Below, piece by piece: positions 155 through 15,528 of a stretch of DNA of 64,000 bases. The position numbers were made by a program, and so were the translations under genes. The stretch is from an uncultured Methanolobus sp. (GTDB lineage Archaea > Halobacteriota > Methanosarcinia > Methanosarcinales > Methanosarcinaceae). The stretch covers positions 1,152,001-1,216,000 of the forward strand of contig OY776215.1 of the NCBI GenBank assembly GCA_963675495.1. The letters run 5' to 3'. Position 1 is the stretch's first letter. Each line of letters opens with the position of its first letter. A model generated the notes under the pieces. The model did not search any database. It was not told the DNA's origin and saw only the letters and a list, made by a program, of their open reading frames with translations.

Positions 155-790
155 TTAAGCCTCCTTCTTCTCCACATTCGCAGGAACTCTTACAGTACCT
201 GCATTCTGCAATGCTGTGAATGTTGCCTTTGCGAAGTTCAGGGTTGTCCTTGTAGTACCTTCGGTCCTTGTCCAGACATCTTTGATACCTGCCTTCTCAA
301 GCACTTTTCTTGCAGTATCTCCTGCAGCAAGACCAAGTCCTCTTGGCGCTGGTTTTAGTTCAACAACGACACTGCCGACCTTTCCACGTACCTCTGAAGG
401 TACAGTGTGTTCAAGTCCACATCCGCATTCCCATGAACCGCATCCACGCTTTACCTTAATTATATTGATCTTAGCGTTGCTGATAGCTTTTCTGATTGCA
501 GGTCCGACCTGGACGTCCTTTGCCTGTCCAAGACCGACAAAACCGTTTCCATTCCCAACAATAACAGTTGCTCTGAACTTTACACGACGTCCAGAGTCAG
601 TCATCCTCTGGACCATGTTGATATCAAGAACCTCATCCTCAAGATCAGGTAACAGAATATCGATTATATTGGATTCCCTAATAGGAAGACCTGACTCGAT
701 AGCCTCATCCATGGAAGTGATTTGCCCTTCCTGAACGAGCTTTCCAAGCCTTGTCTGTGGAACCCATGCCTCTTCATATTGATATGCCAT
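155..790 (-). CDS. rps5: 30S ribosomal protein S5 (uS5)
   Basis: [39 protein letters not shown] motifs. Confidence 0.98.
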
Positions 791-798
791 ATAATCAC

Positions 799-1320
799 CT
801 AGTTGAAGTCAGCAGAGATCTTTTCCTTAACTGTATCGAACAGTTCAGGCAGATTTGAGCCTTCAATGTACTCTGCTACATGTTCTCCTCTTACTCTCTC
901 ATCTGAAGGAAGAACAGATGAGTCGTGAGGAATCTCGAATCCTGAATCTACAATACCTTTCAAGGTTGCATATACACGTGATCCGGAAGATGATGCCTGG
1001 AGTCCTATATCAAGAACGCCGTAATCATATCCCTTGCCCTGTGCCCTATAACCGAATAACAGACCGGTAAGGTACGCAGCTGTTGTGTTTCCAGTAGATG
1101 CCTCGTATCCATACTTTTTAAGTTCTGTTGAAATTGCAGATGAAAGGGTAACGTCCCCTTCAGGTTTAGGAGCTACAAGCTGGATCTGCATGTGCCTTGA
1201 ACTCTTGCGTACTACCACACGGTCTTCCTTTGAAAGAAGTAACCTGAGTCTCTGGTGGTAATCAGTACGCCCTTCTCTTCGTCGTCTGAATGCGACTTTA
1301 TATCTGGGTCCTGTTGCCAT
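799..1320 (-). CDS. rpl18: 50S ribosomal protein L18 (uL18)
   Basis: [22 protein letters not shown]; AAYLTGLL. Confidence 0.98.
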
Positions 1321-1322
1321 GA

Positions 1323-1781
1323 TTATTCCTCGTGCTTTATTAGCTTCTCTGACTCAAGGTGTGCCTTAAGGTGCGCTACACTGCGGTATTCTCCACCTTT
1401 TGCCTTACGGTAAACTTTACAGTAAGTAGACCTGTCCAATGAACCATCTTCACGCATTTGTTTAAGTTCCTTCCTCAAAGCACGGATCTTTTTCATCCAT
1501 TGCTCTTTGCGAGGATTACGTGCGCCCTTCTTACCTTTCCTCTTACCGTGTCCTTTTCGATGACCATACTTACGTTTGACATCTCTTATTCTTGCACGAC
1601 CGCGGCTTACACCCTTGACTGGTATAGCTTTAACACTGCCAGCCTCTATGAGCTCACGTATGTCAGCCCTTGTAATAGCCACTGCGATTTCTGCTGATGC
1701 TTCAGGGTCTAGCCAGACCCTGTGAACGCCACAACCTAATACCTGAGAAGCTATTCTCTTCTGGTTTGTAAGATCTGTCAT
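1323..1781 (-). CDS. rpl19e: 50S ribosomal protein L19e
   Basis: Start re-called at [12 protein letters not shown] (ATG 1781); [22 protein letters not shown]. Confidence 0.97.
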
Positions 1782-1782
1782 C

Positions 1783-2172
1783 TTACTCACCTCTTGTTGG
1801 GTTGAGGACCTTAATAGAAAGCTCTGCAGCTTTTGCCTCAATGATTGCCTTCTTTCTTCCGCCAACCTTTCCAGATATCCTGATAGCTTCCTCAGCTGCA
1901 TTCACAGCATCAAGTTGTCCAACTGTGACTACGAAAACTTCTGCATATCCGGATGGGTGTAGACCTTTTACAGCAGCTGGGCTTCCATAGCCTACCTGAG
2001 CAAGAGCGCCTTTTGCTTTGATGTGTTTGCGCTGTTTACCCTGAAGACCTCTTGGACGTCTCCAGTTAGAATCCAGACGTTTGTACTTGTGACTGTCTGT
2101 CCTCTTGAAATCAGGTTTTTTGTGCTTCTGGACTTTCCTTACCTTAAAAAGGCGTTTAATTTTATCATCCAT
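1783..2172 (-). CDS. rpl32e: 50S ribosomal protein L32e
   Basis: KPDFKR, WRRPRG, GYGSP, GLHPSG. Confidence 0.97.
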
Positions 2173-2181
2173 TCAAATCAC

Positions 2182-2715
2182 CTACACTATCTTCTCCACT
2201 GTATATATTCCGTCCTGGAATACACGCGGGTCGAATCTCTTGATTCGGGTTGCCTGCTCGATATTGGCTGCTGTCTGGCCTACATCTTCCTTGTTGACAC
2301 CGGTAACGATTACCTCGTCTGCTGTGGTCTTCACCTTGGACTCGCCAAGAATATTTGCAGACCGTGCTTTTTTCTCTCCAAGGAAATTGCTGATCATTAG
2401 CTGTTTTCCTTCAACCTTGAGTTGCATAGGAAAGTGAGCGTAAACGACCTTCATGCGATATTCAAATCCATCAGCGACACCTTTCATCATATTTGCAACA
2501 TGTGATGCAAATGTTCCGACCATTGCCTTCTGGGTCTTCTTTGTGACTGATGAGTCTACAATAACCTCAGAACCTACAACCTCGATCTTGATGCCTGGGT
2601 ACCAGAAAGTCCTTTCGTTTTTGCCTTTTGGTCCTGATGTTGTCAGGAGCTGGCCCACGAACGTAACAGTCACACCGTCAGGGATAGGGATTATTTTCTT
2701 TATTTCTTTTGCCAT
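2182..2715 (-). CDS. rpl6: 50S ribosomal protein L6 (uL6)
   Basis: [24 protein letters not shown]. Confidence 0.98.
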
Positions 2716-2730
2716 GTGACATCACATCCA

Positions 2731-3123
2731 TCAGTACACATATGCAAGTAACTGTCCACCAACATTATTCTCACGAGCTTCGTACTGAGATATTACACCA
2801 TTTGAGGTTGTCAATATCAATGTTCCAAAGTTCTTTGCAGGAAGAAACTGCTTTTCCCATCTTTCGAAGTCTGCAGCCCCCACTGAATAACGTGGTTTGA
2901 TAGCACCACACTTGTTGATCCTACCAATAAGTTCTACCTTGTAAATTCCCGCCTTACCGTCTTCGACGAATTCAAATTCACCGACATAGCCACGGTCCTG
3001 CATAACTTTCAGGACAGTGCCGATAAGTTTTGATGCGGGTCTAATGACACAGGAATCTTTACCAATTGCCTCTGCATTCTTTATCATAGACAAAGCGTCA
3101 GCAAGCGGATCTAATAATACCAT
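2731..3123 (-). CDS. rps8: 30S ribosomal protein S8 (uS8)
   Basis: Start re-called at [11 protein letters not shown] (ATG 3123); [27 protein letters not shown]. Confidence 0.98.
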
Positions 3124-3133
3124 TTCTTTCACC

Positions 3134-3286
3134 TCACGTATACTTTTCAAATCCCATATCGTGGGCAACCTCACGGAAACAGTGTCTGCAAAGATAAATA
3201 TCGTATTTTCTTACAAGACCTTGTTTTCTTCCGCATCTCTTGCATTCATTTGCCCCTCTTCCAAAGCTCTTAGTGGTTTGAACCAT
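3134..3286 (-). CDS. rps14: 30S ribosomal protein S14 (uS14, Zn-finger type); missing from the ORF track
   Basis: Own translation: [50 protein letters not shown] (50 aa, CxxC...CxxC). Confidence 0.96.
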
Positions 3287-3796
3287 TTATATTACCTCCA
3301 CGGAGTATGCGTCTTTGAAGAAAGCAACTGTATCCTCTTTTGTGATCCTGTGAGATGTAGGGATTTTCCTTTTAACTATCCTTCTTTTGTTGATCCTGTA
3401 ACCACGACGGTTGACAATTACATTAACATCCATACCAAAGATACCGATGTTAGGATCATATCTCATGCCCGGGAAATCGGTGTGTTCCTCAATACCAAAG
3501 GCAACATTCCCATACTTATCGAATTGGGATGATCTGAGCTTGCTCTCTACAATATCAAGTGCTATTTTAAGAAAGTTTTCTGCACGGTCGGCCCTGAGAG
3601 TAACCTTACAGCCAATTGGCTCGCTCTTCTTAATACCAAATGCTGGAAGAGTTCTTTTTGAATAGGTCCTGACAACAGACTGTCCGGTAATTTCACTGAG
3701 GATACCTTCAGCGTCCACGAGGTGCTGGCCACTTTCACCGACACCCATATGAACAACAACCTTCTCCACAATAGGTGTTCTCATTGGATTACTCAA
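3287..3796 (-). CDS. rpl5: 50S ribosomal protein L5 (uL5)
   Basis: [29 protein letters not shown]. Confidence 0.98.
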
Positions 3797-4499
3797 CTAC
3801 CTCACCACCTAGTTTTATCTCAGGTTCTTTCTCGCCTATGATGACAACGAATTCTTCGATCGTCTCAAACTCATAGTCCCCGGATATTGAAACTGTGTTG
3901 TGCTTGGAACTTCTTACTGTGTTGATATCTTTAATAGTACCAATTTCACCAGTATGCTTTCCACCAACGATCATAGCAAGATTACCAACCTCGTATTTAA
4001 TATGCTTGACAATATCCTTGTCAGGCAGGGAGAGGATGAGTGAATCCTTTGGCTTGTAGTCATTGGAGCCCAGGAGGTTTGTACCGTCATTGAGGTTAAG
4101 CTGCACAGCTCCACCTTTTACAATAGTCTTGCCGTTGATCCTGCAAAGCTTGTTTACATTGGAATCTGCCAGCTTATGAACTTCAAGTCTTCCCTTGCGA
4201 TCCAGCAACATACGGTATGCTGCATCTTCGAGAGGAATTGAGATTACATCTAAAAGACCTACAGGGAATCTGAGATCCTTTCTGACAACACCATCAACGA
4301 GCACACTACCTTCGGAAAGAATGCGCTTTGCTTCTGCACGGGTGTCTACAACACCCAGCATATCCCTCAGGACTACACCCAGAGGCATGCTCTGCTGCTT
4401 GTTATGTGGACCCGGTCTTGTTGATGTGACCCATTTATTGGATTTCTTTGATACCTGCCAGCTGTTAGGGACAGATATTCTTTTCTGATGTTTGCCCAC
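3789..4499 (-). CDS. rps4e: 30S ribosomal protein S4e
   Basis: [29 protein letters not shown]. Confidence 0.98.
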
Positions 4500-4503
4500 A
4501 AAA

Positions 4504-4857
4504 TCACCTGTTATTAATAATTTCTTCTCTGTGTTTGTCCTTCATTTCAAGGGTTGTGATCATCACGTTTGAAGGGTAAACAGGTCTTGCAACCTCTGTT
4601 CCATCTGCTTTTGAAACTGTTATACCTTCTACAATGATCGTTCCGTGCTTCAGGGAAATTGCTTCCACTATTCCGGAAGTTCCTGCATGGTCCCCACGCA
4701 TTAACTTTACAGTATCACCAACAATCACATTGGCTGTGCGACGACTGTATTTGTCACGGAGATCCTTTGAAAGAAGAGCACCCATATATTTCTGTTTGAT
4801 GTGCAGAGGAGCAGTATATCTTGCTTTTCTCTGTTTTCTTGGTTGATTTGATACCAT
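4504..4857 (-). CDS. rpl24: 50S ribosomal protein L24 (uL24)
   Basis: [14 protein letters not shown]; KOW-like [10 protein letters not shown]. Confidence 0.97.
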
Positions 4858-4867
4858 ATTTCACACC

Positions 4868-5266
4868 TCACACAACAATAGATGCTGTTGTACCTATCTT
4901 AGGGAACCTTTCTGCTGCTTCTCTTGCAACAGGACCTTTTATGTCAGTTCCTTTTGGGATACCATCTGCGTCAACAATGACAACTGCATTATCTTCAAAG
5001 GAAACCCTCAGACCGTCTGGTCGGTGAAGTTCCTGTTTCTGGCGTATGATTACTGCAAGGAGGATCTGCTTACGCATTTCCGGTGTTCCTTTCTTCACGG
5101 AAACTACGCACATGTTACCAACACCTGCTCGAGGATGTCTGTTCTTAACACCTCTGTAGCCCTTTACGGATATAATCTCAACTACACGTGCACCAGTATT
5201 GTCCACGCAGTCGATCTTAGCACCAGCGTTAAGTGCACGGGGAACTGTGGATCTAATTCCTCTCAT
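4868..5266 (-). CDS. rpl14: 50S ribosomal protein L14 (uL14)
   Basis: [23 protein letters not shown]. Confidence 0.98.
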
Positions 5267-5592
5267 TCCTGTGCCTCCGCTTTAATGACCACATACGACT
5301 TTGTCTTGCTAAGAGGCCTGCATTCTGCCACTGTCACAACGTCCCCTACTTTTGCATCAACGCAAGGTGGATTGTGTGCGTGAATCTTAGATTGCCTCTT
5401 TTCATATCTCTGATATTTCTTAATGAGAATCTCATGTTTACGCTGGATGACCACTGTCTTGTCCATTTTATCGCTAACAACAGTCCCTACTAGGACCTGC
5501 CCACGAACTGGAAGTGCTCCATGGAATGGACAATTTACATCATCACATTCCTCAGTGGGAGCTGGGACATCCAATCCAATATCTTTAACCAT
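5263..5592 (-). CDS. rps17: 30S ribosomal protein S17 (uS17)
   Basis: [27 protein letters not shown]. Confidence 0.98.
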
Positions 5593-5597
5593 GATTA

Positions 5598-5909
5598 TTA
5601 CCTCATGTGTATTTTTCTTATATTCTTTGTTCTGTTCTCAGGTTGTGAGAGCAGAAGGTTTCCATTCACTTTAACATACCTCTGGGCATGCTTACCGGAT
5701 AATTGGGCAGGTATCTGAAACACAAAGGAAGTACCGTTTTTCTGAATCATTTTCTCAGTTCCTTTTGTTGTTTGAACAATTATCATGTTCTTTGTTTCGT
5801 CAACCACTTTGCCACTTATATCTTTCAAGATCGGATTAGTTGCTTCTACTATTGTCACTTGTAATCCGATCAGTTCATGGAATACCAGTTTCGAAGGAGT
5901 GATCTCCAA
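5598..5909 (-). CDS. rnp1: Ribonuclease P protein component 1 (Rpp29/POP4)
   Basis: [19 protein letters not shown]...PE.R; canonical position between L29 and S17; TTG start. Confidence 0.93.
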
Positions 5910-5910
5910 A

Positions 5911-6114
5911 TCAGATCTCCTTCATTTCCCGCTGGATGGTCTTTATTCTGGCAACGGTTCTCCTTAGCTCGCCAATCCTGCCTGGATTGTCAGGAGCTCC
6001 GCCAGCAGATGAAAGAGCACGCTCGCGAATGAGTTCATCCCTCATTTTGTCGAGTTCGTCCATCCTTTCTTCCGGGGACATATCCCTTATCTCGTTCAAG
6101 CGGAGAATTGCCAT
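5911..6114 (-). CDS. rpl29: 50S ribosomal protein L29 (uL29)
   Basis: [25 protein letters not shown]. Confidence 0.97.
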
Positions 6115-7037
6115 TATTTCTCCTCCTTGTGGACACGTGAGACTGGATGCCAGTAGTCATAGCCATCATGCTTATGCTGCCATACATCATCAACCAGCCT
6201 TCGTTCTGCCTCGGGATTTTCTTCAGGGATTGAATCATCAGATTCAGATGCTTCATCTACACAGGATTCTTCTTCAACTTTCTCAGCTGAAGCTTCTTCA
6301 GTGACTCCTGTTTCCGTGACTTCTGCAACTTCTACTACTTCCTCCTCGTCTGCAACCTCGCCTTCTGATTCCTTGTCTACGAGTTCTGCGATGTCAGCCT
6401 TTGCAGCTTCCGGTGCAACAGCTTCGACCACATCAGCCTCTACGACTTCTTTAATATCAAAAGCGTCAGGTAATACTGCACCTGGAGGGATGATCCTAAC
6501 TTTACAACCAAGGGTTCCCAGCTTTTTGACAGCTGTTGCGAAACCCTCGTCAACTATATCTTCAGCAGGTTTTCCGGCATGTTTGATGTATCCATCAACG
6601 AGTTTTTCAACCCTTGACCTTGAACCTGTTAATTTACCTGAAATTACGATTTCACAGCCCAGTGCACCGGAGTTCATAATAGCTCTAAGAGTATTATGAC
6701 CGGCTTTTCTGAAATACCAGCCTCTTTCAATTGAAGAAGCAAGGCGTGAAGCCATCATCTGGGCATTGAGCTCTGGTCTTTTAACTTCCTGAGCATCTAT
6801 CTGGGGGTTGTCCATATCGTACATCCTGTCGATGTCACGTGTAAGTTTACGGATGACCTTACCAGCTTTACCAATGACCATACCTGGCTTTTCAGCATAT
6901 ACAGTGATTTGGGTACCCATCGGAGTACGATTGATCTCCATCCCACCGTAGCCTGCTTTGCTGAGCTGTTTTAAAAAATATTCGTTCATGGAGGCTTTTA
7001 CATAACCTTCCCGAACGAACTTCTTTTCTATTGCCAT
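6114..7037 (-). CDS. rps3: 30S ribosomal protein S3 (uS3) with acidic C-terminal extension
   Basis: KH domain [30 protein letters not shown]. Confidence 0.98.
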
Positions 7038-11351: not shown

Positions 11352-12215
11352 GTGGAAATTAAAAAAGCCGTGATACCTGTAGCAGGGCTGGGAACCAGGT
11401 TCTTGCCGGCAACAAAGTCCATGCCAAAGGAAATGCTGCCAATCATCGATAAACCAGTGATCCATCACGTGGTTGAGGAAGCTATCGCCTCGGGGATCGA
11501 TGACATCATATTCATAACCGGAAGAAGTAAAAGATCCATAGAGGACTACTTTGATGATTCCCCAGAACTCGAAAGCCACCTCCGGCAAAAGAACAATGAA
11601 AAACTTTTGAAGATCGTGCAGGATATTTCTTCAATGGTGGATATCCACTACATCAGACAAAAAGAGCCAAGAGGTCTGGGAGATGCAATCCTCACGGCAA
11701 AGAAACACATAAATGATGAACCTTTTGCTGTATTGCTTGGTGATGATATCATAGTGAACGAGAAACCATGCACAAAACAGTTGATCGATAACTTCCAGAA
11801 ATACGGCCGTTCAACAATAGCAGTGGAAGAAGTCCCCTTTGAAAAGACAGGCAGTTACGGCATCATTAAAGGTAAGGTATTGGATGACTCACTATATGTA
11901 CTTGAAGACATTGTGGAAAAACCAAAGCCTGAAGATGCCCCTTCCAATATAGGCGCCATTGGAAGGTATGTATTTACACCGGAGATATTGGACTGCATCA
12001 AAGAAACGACCGCTGGAGTAGGTAACGAGATACAACTTACAGATGGTATACGTCTTTTGAAGGAAGAACAGAAGATATACGCATACAAATTCACAGGTAA
12101 AAGATACGACACCGGTGACAAGGTTGAATACGTTAAAGCCATCATCGATTTCGCCCTCAACAACGAAGAAATGAGAGAGCAAATAAAACAACACATCACA
12201 GATATAGATCTGTGA
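11352..12215 (+). CDS. galU: UTP--glucose-1-phosphate uridylyltransferase
   Basis: KAVIPVAGLGTRFLPATK..PKEMLP, RQKEPRGLGDA, VEKP, EIQLTD; GTG start after GGGAG. Confidence 0.96.
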   Translation: MEIKKAVIPVAGLGTRFLPATKSMPKEMLPIIDKPVIHHVVEEAIASGIDDIIFITGRSKRSIEDYFDDSPELESHLRQKNNEKLLKIVQDISSMVDIHYIRQKEPRGLGDAILTAKKHINDEPFAVLLGDDIIVNEKPCTKQLIDNFQKYGRSTIAVEEVPFEKTGSYGIIKGKVLDDSLYVLEDIVEKPKPEDAPSNIGAIGRYVFTPEILDCIKETTAGVGNEIQLTDGIRLLKEEQKIYAYKFTGKRYDTGDKVEYVKAIIDFALNNEEMREQIKQHITDIDL

Positions 12216-12264
12216 TCCTATTTCCCACTTATTAGATTACTTCATTGCAAAATGAAGCAATTAA

Positions 12265-12510
12265 TTATCCAGAGCTGCGCTTCACAACTTTCCTGACAGT
12301 TCTGCCCCTGAAATTAACCCCCCCAACAAGCTGGACACCGGGCTTTCCCTTTATTGCATCTGCATAGTCACCATTGAAAGTGGCTATTATACTCTTGTTT
12401 GCAACAACCTCTACGCGTCCACCCACACCAACAAGGGCTTTTAGAATACCTTCTACCTGAGAAGGGGTTGCATTATCAGCAACCCTTATGATATGTGTTT
12501 CCACAGACAT
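12265..12510 (-). CDS. Small hypothetical protein, possible I9/subtilisin-propeptide-like ferredoxin fold
   Basis: 81 aa, 5 nt after the upstream stop; beta-alpha-beta-beta-alpha-beta pattern ending ADAIKGKPGVQLV, then a basic tail. Confidence 0.75.
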   Translation of the reverse strand: MSVETHIIRVADNATPSQVEGILKALVGVGGRVEVVANKSIIATFNGDYADAIKGKPGVQLVGGVNFRGRTVRKVVKRSSG

Positions 12511-12515
12511 GAAAC

Positions 12516-13595
12516 TTAGTTCCTGGAAATGGACTTCCTGACTGACGCTATTCTGGCGGCCTGCCTGTCAGATAGCACCGCCCTGACATCATTCGCAGCC
12601 CCTGTGACAGCAGGTTTTGCAGCAATACCGGAAACCGCAGCGAACTCTACCTTAGAAGTGGCTACTACAATATCAATTGCAGTTCCGATGTCTGCATGCT
12701 CCCCGGCAGTTACTGATTGGCTGAGAACCTTACCGGCATTCAAAGCATCAGTTTGTTCCGTCACCTTTCCGGAACGAAGCTTAACAGCTTCCAATGCTTT
12801 TTGAGCAGAAGCCAGATTCATACCTACAATATTTGGCACTTCAACTGAAGTGATCTTTGATATAACCAGATCCACAGCATCCCCCGCTTTTGCAACCGAA
12901 CTGCCAGATGGTATCTGAGAGAGTACTGTCGCCTGTTCAAGAGAACTGTCCTTTTCAATGACATCACCCTGTACAAAACCAGCAGCCTTTATTATAGATA
13001 CTGCCAGGTCCATATCCAGCCCTACAACATCAGGCACATCAATATAATCAGAGAATATGCGTTCTTTAGATGATGAATTTATAGTGAATTCGACCTCGCT
13101 CAGGTTGTCTGCAGGAATCACATCGTCTGCCTTTGGAAGCTGGAAACGTAGTTCATCGTCCTTCACAGCTATATTTGTCCTGAGCTTGATGTTCATGGAA
13201 CTTACGTTATAGTCCACCCTTGAGGACTCCGAACTCATAGACTCATCCATTTGCACAAGGGAATCACGAAAAGCCTTAACGAGGTTTGCAGAAGATAATT
13301 CAGGTCTTGTACGCGAAAGTTGTTCCAGTTTCCTATCACTTTCAGCTTTTTCTTTTAGTATTTCCTGAACCCTGCTGTCAAGGATAGCATAATCCTGTTT
13401 CAACACCAGGTTTTCTTTTTTTAACTGTTCGATTGAATCTGTTTTAGTCATCAGCTCTTTCTCTACAGCCTCAAATTCAGACTCAACAGCCACGATGTTC
13501 TTCTGGAGCAGAGTATAACTCTGTTTTTTTGATGCAGCAGTGGTTGACTTATTTAAACGTTCAATATTCTGCCTTAGTTCCTTAATATCGCTCAT
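12516..13595 (-). CDS. Coiled-coil + DUF2589/Trypco-like domain + two PASTA domains
   Basis: Heptads at aa 1-95; PASTA-type repeats VPDVVG...A...IKAAGF...TVLSQ.P..GDAVDLVIS and VPNIVG...A...LEAVKL...GKVLSQ...GTAIDIVVA; RBS GGAGGGG; no signal peptide. Confidence 0.85.
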   Translation of the reverse strand: MSDIKELRQNIERLNKSTTAASKKQSYTLLQKNIVAVESEFEAVEKELMTKTDSIEQLKKENLVLKQDYAILDSRVQEILKEKAESDRKLEQLSRTRPELSSANLVKAFRDSLVQMDESMSSESSRVDYNVSSMNIKLRTNIAVKDDELRFQLPKADDVIPADNLSEVEFTINSSSKERIFSDYIDVPDVVGLDMDLAVSIIKAAGFVQGDVIEKDSSLEQATVLSQIPSGSSVAKAGDAVDLVISKITSVEVPNIVGMNLASAQKALEAVKLRSGKVTEQTDALNAGKVLSQSVTAGEHADIGTAIDIVVATSKVEFAAVSGIAAKPAVTGAANDVRAVLSDRQAARIASVRKSISRN

Positions 13596-13611
13596 TCCAC
13601 CCCTCCACTCA

Positions 13612-14019
13612 TTACTCTTCCACTATCCTTGAAGAAGAAGGAACTGATACTATTTTTGCCTTAAGAACGCTTGAGCCCTCTACATCATATGAGTTTAGTG
13701 ATTTGTAAGAAGCATTCAAAGGTGCTGCATTAAGGACCCGTTTATATCCACGTATACGGTTCTTTGAATCTCGTTCTTCCTCATATTTCATGGACAGGGC
13801 CATTTTAAGTTCGATATCAACTTCAGGTATGTGATACCAGGTAGCTTCAAGATCGAACTCCTGAAGCGCTTCATCAGTTGAAAGTTCTATTTGTGTATCA
13901 ATGGAATTACGGTCAAGTGCCCTTTGTGTCTGTGCAATGGATTTTCCCATCTCACTTAATATGGTTGAAAGCGGACTGACAAGAACCTCTTCAATACTTT
14001 CGCTACTATTGGATGGCAA
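13612..14019 (-). CDS. Hypothetical protein, paralog of the upstream gene (DUF2589-like)
   Basis: TTG start with GAAGGAGA RBS; PLSTILSEMGKSIAQTQRALD aligns with PFGDMIKEMAFAIAEGQTALD of the upstream gene. Confidence 0.85.
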   Translation of the reverse strand: MPSNSSESIEEVLVSPLSTILSEMGKSIAQTQRALDRNSIDTQIELSTDEALQEFDLEATWYHIPEVDIELKMALSMKYEEERDSKNRIRGYKRVLNAAPLNASYKSLNSYDVEGSSVLKAKIVSVPSSSRIVEE

Positions 14020-14057
14020 AGTATAATCTCCTTCAATGTTCTGTTAAAAATAAATTG

Positions 14058-14081
14058 TCAATGCAGATATCACTGCATTGA
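14058..14081 (-). terminator. Intra-operon hairpin followed by a U-rich tract
   Basis: Perfect 9-bp inverted repeat TCAATGCAG-6nt-CTGCATTGA, followed on the minus strand by CAATTTATTTTT. Confidence 0.55.
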
Positions 14082-14097
14082 TCCAAATATACCTGCC

Positions 14098-14709
14098 TTA
14101 CTCTGAGGAACTCTCTTTGACCCTGACGGTCGGGATAGCTCTCTCTGGTGGTGGCACTGGTTTCAGCGTTGTACGCAGAAGACTGGTACCTGATTCACTG
14201 AAGGTATACTTTGACTTATATGTTGCATCATAGGTCGATGTGTATGCAACATTGGTTGTGTTCTCGTAGCTTACCTTAGCTTTGCCAAATAGAAGACCTG
14301 CAAGACCACCGGACTTGTAGCTTCCACTTATTTTGGACTCGTTGGTGAACTTGAACTCCCTACCATATTTCCTTTCTGTTGAATACTCCTTCTTCATTGA
14401 GATAGTCATTTTGACCTCAATGACAGATTCGGTGAATTCATAGAAACGAGGTTCAAGACCATATGTAAGTAAGGACATGGGTTGATCATTTGTAACCACG
14501 TCTGTAGCAGTTACGTTCCCATCCTCATCTACAGTTTCCTCTATATAGAGAATTACACTCCCAGCTTCCAGCTCAGTCTCTGCAAGGGCCTGTGCAACAT
14601 TAATCGAATTAATGTCCAGAGCAGTTTGTCCCTCTGCAATAGCAAAAGCCATTTCTTTTATCATGTCCCCAAATGGAACATCTAATAGTTTTTGACCAAC
14701 AGATGCCAT
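14098..14709 (-). CDS. Hypothetical protein, DUF2589-like, with long S/T/Y-rich beta-hairpin
   Basis: ATG with GGAGGG RBS; N-terminal helix P-F-x-x-M-I...AIAEGQ..LD, strand FYEFTESVIEVKMTISM, C-terminal GTSLLRTTLKPVPPP. Confidence 0.85.
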   Translation of the reverse strand: MASVGQKLLDVPFGDMIKEMAFAIAEGQTALDINSINVAQALAETELEAGSVILYIEETVDEDGNVTATDVVTNDQPMSLLTYGLEPRFYEFTESVIEVKMTISMKKEYSTERKYGREFKFTNESKISGSYKSGGLAGLLFGKAKVSYENTTNVAYTSTYDATYKSKYTFSESGTSLLRTTLKPVPPPERAIPTVRVKESSSE

Positions 14710-14931
14710 TAAATCCCTCCAAATTTTTTATACAATATATAATGGAACAGTATACCATATAGACTTTGCTAAAAATATTAACATTATTATAAAAATATAA
14801 TTCTTAATTTTTGACTTCGGAACAAATAGAAATATGCAAAAAACAAAAATAAATTTACAAATAAAGCATGAGTAGAAATATGAGATCCAATAAAGACCTA
14901 AAAAAGAAAATGAAGACAGGATAATCTTAGA

Positions 14932-15528
14932 TTATCCCTGTGTTATGGACCTGCCCATCTCAAAAGCCCTGACATTGATATCAATTGTCTTCTGTGGGAC
15001 AAGCTCCCTGACGCATCCCATAATAGTTTCAACAGATATTGGAAGGTAATTTGAAACTGCACCCACCATGACAACATTCATGGACTGGGGATGTCCTGCC
15101 TCTTTTGCAAGTTCGGTTGCATTGAAGGCTTTTACTTTGTGACTCTGTTTAAGTTTTTCAATGATAGCATCAACATCCGGATAGCTGCAAAGCCCTGAGG
15201 TCACAGTGACCGGAAGAATTGGATCGGTGTTCACTATGATGACCCCATCATCAGAAAGGAATTCAAGATACCTGAGTGCCTCACTTGGCTCTAGTGCAAG
15301 CAATACGTCGGCCCCCTTCATAGGGATCATTGAACCGAGCTCACAGTCAATCCTTATATGATTGACAACTGAACCGCCACGTTGTGCCATTCCATGAGTC
15401 TCAGCTGCACGGACTGACATATCTTCCTTTACAGCTGCCTTGCCAATGATATCAGATGCAAGGATAGTTCCCTGTCCACCTACACCGGCGATGACAAGAT
15501 CGAATTTAGAAATTCCTTCTGCACTCAT
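14932..15528 (-). CDS. iorB: Indolepyruvate ferredoxin oxidoreductase subunit beta
   Basis: AGVGGQG, ETHGMAQRGGSV, ALEPSEALR. Confidence 0.95.
   Translation of the reverse strand: MSAEGISKFDLVIAGVGGQGTILASDIIGKAAVKEDMSVRAAETHGMAQRGGSVVNHIRIDCELGSMIPMKGADVLLALEPSEALRYLEFLSDDGVIIVNTDPILPVTVTSGLCSYPDVDAIIEKLKQSHKVKAFNATELAKEAGHPQSMNVVMVGAVSNYLPISVETIMGCVRELVPQKTIDINVRAFEMGRSITQG

Follow-up and report, generated by a model that had tools for sequence, protein, structure and literature searches.

A four-gene cassette shared by archaea and bacteria with putative distant kinship to the DUF2589 and Trypco2 (Pepco) domains

The closest described system to the genes considered here is Pepco (Trypco1/Trypco2, PF19631; PMC7159879). 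A pore effector of bacterial anti-phage systems, it is described in the preprint as a 117-aa protein with basal amphipathic helices, forming 9-10-mer barrels that are hydrophobic outside and have a charged lumen (bioRxiv 10.1101/2025.11.14.688446). According to the same source, its tail is 20% Pro and 40% charged and is cut by a partner protease to activate the pre-assembled pore. A second point of comparison is the DUF2589 family (PF11655), whose genes AF0414-AF0417 in Archaeoglobus fulgidus are reportedly induced on lactate (PMC3949148). Our full-text literature search gave no function for DUF2589. PASTA domains bind cell wall or beta-lactams, according to a 2002 description cited in PMC7159879, and the propeptides of subtilisins (I9) complete the comparison. 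Here we analyse a four-gene cassette (genes A to D) at 12265-14709 on the minus strand of a 64,000-nucleotide stretch, hereafter the window, which spans contig positions 1152001-1216000 of the genome of an uncultured Methanolobus sp., a single contig of 2.87 Mb. The DUF2589, Trypco2 and Pepco texts searched, as far as they were available, contain no description of this four-gene composition; supplements, which lay outside that search, may list it.

The cassette consists of four co-oriented open reading frames (ORFs) whose coordinates agree exactly with those of a first-pass annotation of this DNA. As that annotation had claimed, the genes are closely spaced, with gaps of 78, 16 and 5 bases between A-B, B-C and C-D. 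Their features are as follows.

14098-14709, minus strand: gene A, 203 aa, ATG start; DUF2589-like helix, long amphipathic beta-strands and a Pro/charge-rich C-terminal tail (aa 183-203)
13612-14019, minus strand: gene B, 135 aa, TTG start; a minimal A paralog lacking both inserts of A
12516-13595, minus strand: gene C, 359 aa, ATG start
13311-13595, minus strand: C residues 1-95, predicted coiled coil
13041-13340, minus strand: C residues 86-185, conserved middle domain, Trypco2 (Pepco)-like
12660-13061, minus strand: C residues ~179-312, two PASTA domains
12519-12659, minus strand: C residues 313-359, Ala/Ser-rich linker and basic tail ending ...RIASVRKSISRN
12265-12510, minus strand: gene D, 81 aa, ATG start; small alpha/beta protein, subtilisin propeptide (I9)-like, which has a GGV motif and whose C-terminal strand is basic

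We found joint inheritance of all four genes in archaea and bacteria alike. When 80 loci were scored with the window proteins (phmmer), all four genes were present in 53, with D downstream in 49 and upstream in 4, and A+B+C in 18, six of which are cut by a contig end. The rest were seven distant variants with A and B, with or without D, and two short pieces with A alone. When 19 loci were rechecked with a hidden Markov model (HMM) of the D family, which found 70 ORFs in the 80 loci, 15 proved to have a D-like ORF immediately upstream of A, adding 15 loci to those with D; of the four others, one is truncated at its start. Because the D-like ORF lies upstream of A in these loci, gene order is A-B-C-D in archaeal loci, whereas the bacterial loci examined have D-A-B-C. 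Homologs of A numbered 350 at E<=1e-3 among 735 candidates, and the A/B family comprised 1420 representatives at E<=1e-3 among 1.84 billion. Relatives were encoded in 268 of 321 pattern-matched stretches from species-representative genomes. Named sources include Methanosarcinales, Syntrophoarchaeum, Bathyarchaeia, Methanocalculus, Aquificales, Burkholderiales, Chitinophagales, Acidimicrobiia and Acetobacterales, among others. Chance ORFs were rejected as an explanation, given the 350 homologs of A and the co-occurrence of the four genes across phyla. The cassette is real, self-contained, and either ancient or widely exchanged. Since the genes co-occur elsewhere, the first-pass annotation's own ground for refutation, that they would not, fails.

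Of 41 related genomes, 20 carried the cassette; amongst the 24 congeners, 11 did. Five cassette-free congeners (L115-L119; genomes G023, G016, G007, G021, G018) were compared. The flanking genes lie only 52-111 bases apart in four of them; in the fifth, the second flank was not found within 1.5 kb. With its flanks abutting in four of five cases, the 2.7-kb cassette is cleanly present or absent at a single site.

Proteins A and B align by BLASTP (E 3e-10, 25% identity), and profiles built from 22 orthologs of each match strongly in hhalign (99.5%, E 2.8e-23). The aligned blocks described at first pass are thus real and, judged from their sequences, A and B are paralogs. B corresponds to A minus a hairpin insert (A ~aa 44-76) and a loop insert (A ~aa 116-150). 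Hydrophobic and charged residues alternate along the main strand throughout the A/B family, and the C-terminal tail of A is 24% Pro and 33% charged. A is conserved over its full length, loops included: eight members of the A alignment, bacterial by source name or close grouping, are 50-58% identical to window A. B orthologs in bacterial loci show 37-49% identity, and conservation falls along the gradient A > B > C, D. The AF2 monomer of A (22 sequences) was poor, with a pLDDT of 50, and unusable for fold search. B was modelled better from a 96-row alignment (pLDDT 82.8, pTM 0.64), with a predicted long helix (17-48), a hairpin (66-83/89-100), a short helix (103-109) and a third strand (117-124).

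Kinship of A and B to DUF2589 would be distant, and shows at the level of profiles and of a language model. We compared a broad A/B profile of 96 members with a profile of 18 true DUF2589 proteins and obtained 66.7% (hhalign, E 5.4e-5) with 143 columns in register. The narrower profiles gave 22.5% (A; E 9e-4) and 6.3% (B). ESM Atlas, a language-model look-up, returned 30 clusters for A, all 30 labelled DUF2589, with a best score of 0.98. True DUF2589 genes occurred in 11 of 201 genomes of the phylum, none of the 11 in the host's family. These genes (L093-L103; genomes G043, G057, G089, G113, G120, G135, G146, G167, G174, G194, G210) form tandem pairs, and in 9 of the 11 loci a third small gene resembling the C middle domain follows, an arrangement that parallels the A-B-C order. 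Neither a PASTA protein nor a D-like gene was found within their 1.5-kb flanks.

That third small gene defines a bridge family. The family matches the C middle domain (75.6%, E 2.4e-5), A/B (57.8%, E 1e-4) and DUF2589 (39.9%, E 3e-4); it gave no match to the certified Trypco2 protein. The latter, our Trypco2 reference, is the single Pfam-certified member (E 1.7e-10) among the 201 genomes. It was matched by the profile of the C middle domain, built from 27 orthologs from diverse cassette-bearing loci, at 79.5% (E 1.5e-5) over 77 columns. The middle domain matched the B profile only weakly, at 24% (E 8e-4, 56 columns), and did not match the A profile (0.9%). BLASTP found no similarity between C and A or B, and an HMM of the 96 A/B-family members found only A and B in the host genome at E<=1, leaving C unmatched. 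The 'weaker copy' in C proposed by the first-pass annotation thus finds weak and bridging profile matches but is invisible to BLASTP and to the A/B-family HMM. Likewise, its domain shared by all three proteins holds in so far as the C middle domain appears Trypco2-like, whilst the kinship of C to A/B is indirect. Because the support is a chain of moderate matches, it is plausible, and only plausible, that A, B and the middle of C are three copies of one domain.

The locus of the certified Trypco2 protein itself (L113, genome G222) encodes a 167-aa protein, apparently two repeats, at 1243-1746 on the minus strand. Just upstream of it, at L113:1807-3150 (minus strand), lies a gene for a 447-aa protein that by eye appears to combine a subtilisin-type protease with TPR repeats.

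As for the rest of C, two PASTA domains follow a predicted coiled coil, as the first-pass annotation had it. Residues 1-95 are charge-rich, free of Pro and Gly and 53% E/K/Q/L/R, with weak matches to coiled-coil and SMC-like families only. The PASTA match (PF03793) covers two stretches at E 3.7e-22 and 78.5 bits, against a gathering cut-off of 23.2, and residues 179-327 match the PASTA part of an NCBIfam PASTA kinase model (Stk1-type). PASTA was found in 65 of 65 complete C orthologs. The same 65 differ at their C-terminal end, with HHH_5 in 18, DUF4332 in 14 and basic tails in the remainder. Two of the 65 carry a potato inhibitor I domain (PF00280, best E 3.4e-6), a second serine-protease-inhibitor-like module. 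In orthologs from bacterial loci the middle domain shows 14-30% identity; ESM Atlas gave no usable match for it, and its profile found only chance-level matches in the PDB. In two Methanosarcina-type loci (L024:3408-7496 and L025:2932-7512) a very large protein, of 1362 and 1526 aa, is encoded just upstream of A, and that of L024 contains 12 PASTA stretches (E 1e-102).

For D, a profile of 22 proteins was compared with the PDB. The best match was the subtilisin E propeptide (1scj_B, E 0.0033, 58 of 71 residues), followed by the BPN' prosegment (E 0.055) and Tk-subtilisin propeptides (~0.4). D thus appears to resemble subtilisin propeptides, through a marginal match (E 0.0033), which agrees with its first-pass description as I9-like. 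Pfam gave no family, I9 included, for window D or the 22 members at E<=1. We found no longer protein with a D-like domain at E<=0.01 among 8000 candidates, which is weak evidence, and no S8 protease fused or linked to D in any locus examined. The host genome encodes two S8 (subtilisin-type) protease domains, at contig positions 986841-987848 and 992182-993192 outside the window, in frames of 1764 and 1446 aa some 160-180 kb from the cassette.

Some members of the wider A/B family are built differently. One distant variant without C (L084-L086 and L091; Chloroflexia, Acidobacteriota, Blastocatellia, Nevskia) consists of a GT4 glycosyltransferase, a D-like gene, an A-like gene, one or two large proteins, and A'-like and B'-like genes. 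The large proteins of L086 match NAGPA phosphodiester glycosidase (E 2e-5) and GH5 cellulase (E 3e-12). In the A-like member P0240 the C-terminal addition is LamG/pentraxin-like (pappalysin N-terminal domain, E 2.5e-10); by eye, P0202, P0238 and P0251 look similar. Four others (P0158, P0164, P0169, P0217) have long helical repeats C-terminally, and P0193, P0195 and P0239 have an added C-terminal PASTA domain.

The reading we favour, tentatively, is that the cassette encodes a Pepco-like hetero-oligomeric beta-barrel module in which C is the adaptor and D the regulator or gate. The four genes would then form one self-contained module around a Pepco/DUF2589-type assembly domain. A would be the major, very constrained subunit and B the minor one. 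Their long amphipathic beta-hairpins would link the two into a ring or beta-barrel whose base is formed by the amphipathic N-terminal helices of both, as reported for Pepco nonamers and decamers. C would multimerise by its coiled coil and enter or dock on the A/B assembly by its Trypco2-like domain, and its PASTA domains, together with the helix-hairpin-helix domain or basic tail, would provide a ligand-binding or anchoring arm for nucleic acid or glycan. D may be a propeptide-like cap or inhibitor that restrains the assembly, or may restrain a protease encoded elsewhere; such a protease would trim the Pro/charge-rich tails of A and B. A trigger, of whatever kind, would lead the assembly to permeabilise the cell's own membrane, and the cell would then stop growing or die, as happens in abortive infection, or else mount a controlled stress response. 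By analogy, the alternating strand, the Pro/charged tail and the predicted shape of B, which parallel Pepco, suggest the barrel. The propeptide likeness of D and the potato-inhibitor-I domain on two of the 65 C orthologs may point to a protease-inhibitor theme. It is doubtful, if possible, that the fuller version applies: a membrane-permeabilising module common to archaea and bacteria, with an A/B barrel, a C arm that senses or tethers nucleic acid or glycan, and a stand-alone D that replaces a linked protease as the gate.

Several results weigh against a Pepco-like conflict module. The first concern kinship. The Pfam DUF2589 model (gathering 23 bits) found nothing in the host genome at E<=10, with A and B unmatched at E<=1, and amongst relatives it matched none of 28 family members and 1 of 96 (E 0.039). 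Trypco2 (gathering 24.2 bits) likewise found nothing in the host genome at E<=10; below threshold it matched 4 of 27 C middle domains (best 0.05), 3 of 96 A/B-family members (best 8.2e-4) and 1 of 28 (0.13). The DUF2589/Trypco resemblance drawn at first pass therefore survives in distant profiles and the language-model look-up but not in the Pfam models themselves. The A/B profile gave no match to the certified Trypco2 protein (0.2%), and the C middle domain matched the broad A/B profile at only 2.6%. A, B and D have no match in Pfam, NCBIfam, PADLOC 2.0 (E<=1) or PHROGs, and here the gap in PADLOC and PHROGs counts; C matched in PADLOC through its PASTA repeats (PD-T4-6) and coiled coil only. 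The same searches returned no characterised housekeeping complex.

Structure comparison and conservation add to these points. The B model had no Foldseek match in the PDB at E<=0.001 (best 0.36), and VIA-align 2 found no Z>=5 among 48,161 chains, the best (4.1) covering the helix only. A missing fold match does not make B a new fold, because the Pepco work used 2D class averages and models, so a PDB entry may not exist. A sequence search of the PDB with the A/B profile gave chance-level matches only. The predicted A + B complex scored 0.01 against a mark of 0.32, which counts neither way. Compared with B (37-49%) and the middle of C (14-30%), A (50-58%) is unusually conserved for a conflict effector.

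The genomic setting also offers the conflict reading little. Across the 80 loci, no conserved protease or sensor recurs beside the cassette. No neighbour outside A-D recurs across phyla, beyond the synteny of about 20 Methanosarcinales loci, where the cassette has a fixed place by a cluster that by eye holds ribosomal protein genes. We examined 148 neighbour proteins from 31 loci (L060-L092 minus L069 and L081), mostly bacterial and some archaeal. No peptidase was among the 25 commonest of their 192 Pfam families, which are mostly housekeeping, and matches to defence models were scattered: mad3, AriA and mad8 three times each, Mokosh and others once, and one TIR protein, all counted without a control set. 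A TIR-domain protein (PF13676, E 7.8e-10) is encoded in a Burkholderiales locus (L060:3054-7632) together with a 1040-aa protein, for which no PDB relative was found, directly upstream of D-A-B-C on the same strand. The cassette was in none of 50,697 phage records, and a relative was on one of 72,556 plasmids, a 303-kb Sphaerotilus replicon; phage or plasmid cargo was rejected on these counts. On that plasmid (Sphaerotilus sulfidivorans NZ_CP035710.1; L114:6646-9425) the match consists of five adjacent hypothetical genes (114-278 aa) that lie between sugar-acid transport/oxidoreductase genes and ilvD, which is not a defence context.

Nearly as likely as the barrel module, and still on the unlikely side, is a non-lethal structural or scaffolding assembly. 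Here A, together with B, would form a polymer (a constrained lattice, ring or cage), tethered to DNA or a glycan via the PASTA and helix-hairpin-helix domains or the basic tail of C, and the role would be accessory physiology, in envelope, nucleoid or stress adaptation, in place of conflict. The conservation of A throughout, its loops included, and the gradient from A to C and D fit such an assembly, as do the fixed chromosomal position in the Methanosarcinales beside what look like ribosomal protein genes, the absence of the cassette from phages and near absence from plasmids, and the missing defence-model matches for A, B and D. Also in its favour are the distant variants interleaved with a GT4 glycosyltransferase, NAGPA-like glycosidase and GH5 cellulase, the family members fused to LamG/pentraxin-like lectin domains, and the reported lactate induction of the A. 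fulgidus DUF2589 genes AF0414-AF0417 (PMC3949148). The patchy spread of the cassette argues the other way, with clean presence or absence in one genus and about half of close relatives without it. Pepco, the sole characterised relative of the domain, is moreover a pore-forming death effector, and the pairing of one constant assembly domain with changing binding domains resembles the modularity of conflict systems.

It is improbable that the cassette is a protease guard or sensor, in which a subtilisin-like protease, of host or invader, is bound by D and by the potato-inhibitor domain that C occasionally carries, and has A/B/C as its substrate or decoy. This idea takes up the switching-on of Pepco by a partner protease, as given in the preprint (bioRxiv 10.1101/2025.11.14.688446), the likeness of D to subtilisin propeptides and PF00280 on 2 of 65 C orthologs. 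It could also draw on the apparent subtilase-TPR protein adjoining the Trypco2 gene of G222 and on the two large S8 proteases of the host genome. Against it, the likeness of D to propeptides is of marginal significance (E 0.0033), and D goes unmatched by Pfam I9 at E<=1. None of the loci examined has a protease linked to the cassette and, as weak evidence, no longer protein bearing a D-like domain was found among the 8000 candidates. The beta-alpha-beta-beta-alpha-beta fold is, besides, a common one.

A released antibacterial or anti-competitor toxin complex, in which the PASTA domains of C direct an A/B pore to peptidoglycan-bearing cells and D acts as immunity factor, is highly improbable. 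The invariant PASTA (65 of 65) with its described cell-wall or beta-lactam binding (cited in PMC7159879) and the lectin-like and glycosidase partners in the wider family would suit it, but no signal peptide or membrane segment was seen on A-D by eye and hydropathy, secretion genes do not recur among neighbours in the 80 loci, the conservation of A far exceeds what is usual for arms-race toxins, and the helix-hairpin-helix domains or basic tail of C point to nucleic acid over cell wall. The 'archaeal antibacterial weapon' of the first-pass annotation fits poorly: many bacterial phyla have the same cassette, A is strongly conserved and nothing resembling an export signal was seen.

The first-pass description of the sequence signals holds in three respects: ribosome-binding sites, base composition and, as far as seen, the lack of signal peptides and transmembrane helices. 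Ribosome-binding motifs precede the first three genes (GGAGG before A, GGAG 8 bases ahead of the TTG start of B, GGAGGGG before C); none was found in the sequence preceding D, which starts 5 bases past C. The region upstream of A is AT-rich, with a GC content of 0.30 measured over 14600-14999. The maximal 19-residue Kyte-Doolittle means are 0.99 (A), 0.83 (B), 1.63 (C) and 1.26 (D), the C peak lying at the start of the PASTA region, in agreement with the lack of transmembrane helices; signal peptides were judged by eye only. The cassette is flanked by a convergent plus-strand gene (11352-12215) and a co-oriented minus-strand gene (14932-15528), putatively galU and iorB, the labels given at first pass. 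Two spacers separate it from these flanks.

14710-14931, minus strand: AT-rich spacer of 222 bases upstream of A, with TATA-like runs and GGAGG 7 bases before the ATG of A; putative promoter judged by eye
12216-12264, no strand assigned: spacer between D and the plus-strand flank, with a short inverted repeat, by eye a possible shared terminator

In one marine sediment metatranscriptome run, three contigs of ~150 bases, 95-99% alike, cover parts of A and B; such libraries may contain DNA. The further runs that hold the sequence, kept as contigs, are of DNA or unspecified type. One of unspecified type, belonging to the study that also gave a near-identical assembly, covers 12200-14950 with 143 short contigs of very uneven depth (~250-7000); it looks RNA-like and cannot be called RNA.

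If DUF2589 and the wider A/B family, with its 1420 representatives, were linked to the newly characterised Pepco pore, they would gain a testable mechanism. If the favoured barrel reading is true, no Pepco-type module before this one would have dispensed with a linked protease or NTPase sensor, and the cassette would show a new control of a Pepco-type domain: protease-independent, or trans-protease-guarded, licensing of a pore. If the assembly is structural, the cassette would be a candidate self-assembling nanostructure, with A as conserved as known lattice-forming proteins. The invariant PASTA sits on a protein without an export signal, in hosts that to our knowledge, as Methanosarcinales, lack murein, which raises the question of what PASTA binds there. 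The A homologs include records from Methanosarcina mazei and M. barkeri, both genetically tractable, so the system is open to methanogen genetics.

Of the known systems, the PASTA proteins (PknB/Stk1-type kinases, PBP2x) resemble the cassette in the repeats of C. C has two canonical PASTA repeats (78.5 bits) and matches the Stk1-type and PD-T4-6 models, but it lacks a kinase or transpeptidase domain, and the repeats are not preceded by a membrane segment. What precedes them is a coiled coil with a Trypco2-like domain, and helix-hairpin-helix domains often come after them; the host of C is an archaeon. The D profile aligns with 58 of the 71 residues of the subtilisin E propeptide. Unlike such propeptides, D stands alone, neither fused nor adjacent to an S8 protease, has a GGV motif and a basic C-terminal strand, and is unmatched by Pfam I9 at E<=1.

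In the DUF2589 clusters, such as AF0414-AF0417 of A. fulgidus, the helix, hairpin and strand follow one another as in A/B (66.7%, E 5.4e-5, 143 columns), and tandem paralogs are followed by a third small gene resembling the C middle domain. They differ in that the Pfam model misses A and B (E>10 in the host genome), and that loci L093-L103 have neither a PASTA protein nor a D-like gene in their 1.5-kb flanks. Pepco differs from the cassette in the number of its copies and in its partners. The cassette has three distinct copies (A, B, C) where Pepco has one, no adjacent protease, STAND or vWA-MoxR partner in the 80 loci, and no direct Trypco2 match for A/B. It adds an I9-like small protein and an invariant PASTA arm, its A is highly conserved, and it is present in archaea. 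The likeness to Pepco (PF19631; PMC7159879; bioRxiv 10.1101/2025.11.14.688446) lies in a small domain with an amphipathic N-terminal helix, long amphipathic strands and a Pro/charge-rich tail. The C middle domain matches the certified Trypco2 protein (79.5%, E 1.5e-5), and both systems combine modularly with binding domains.

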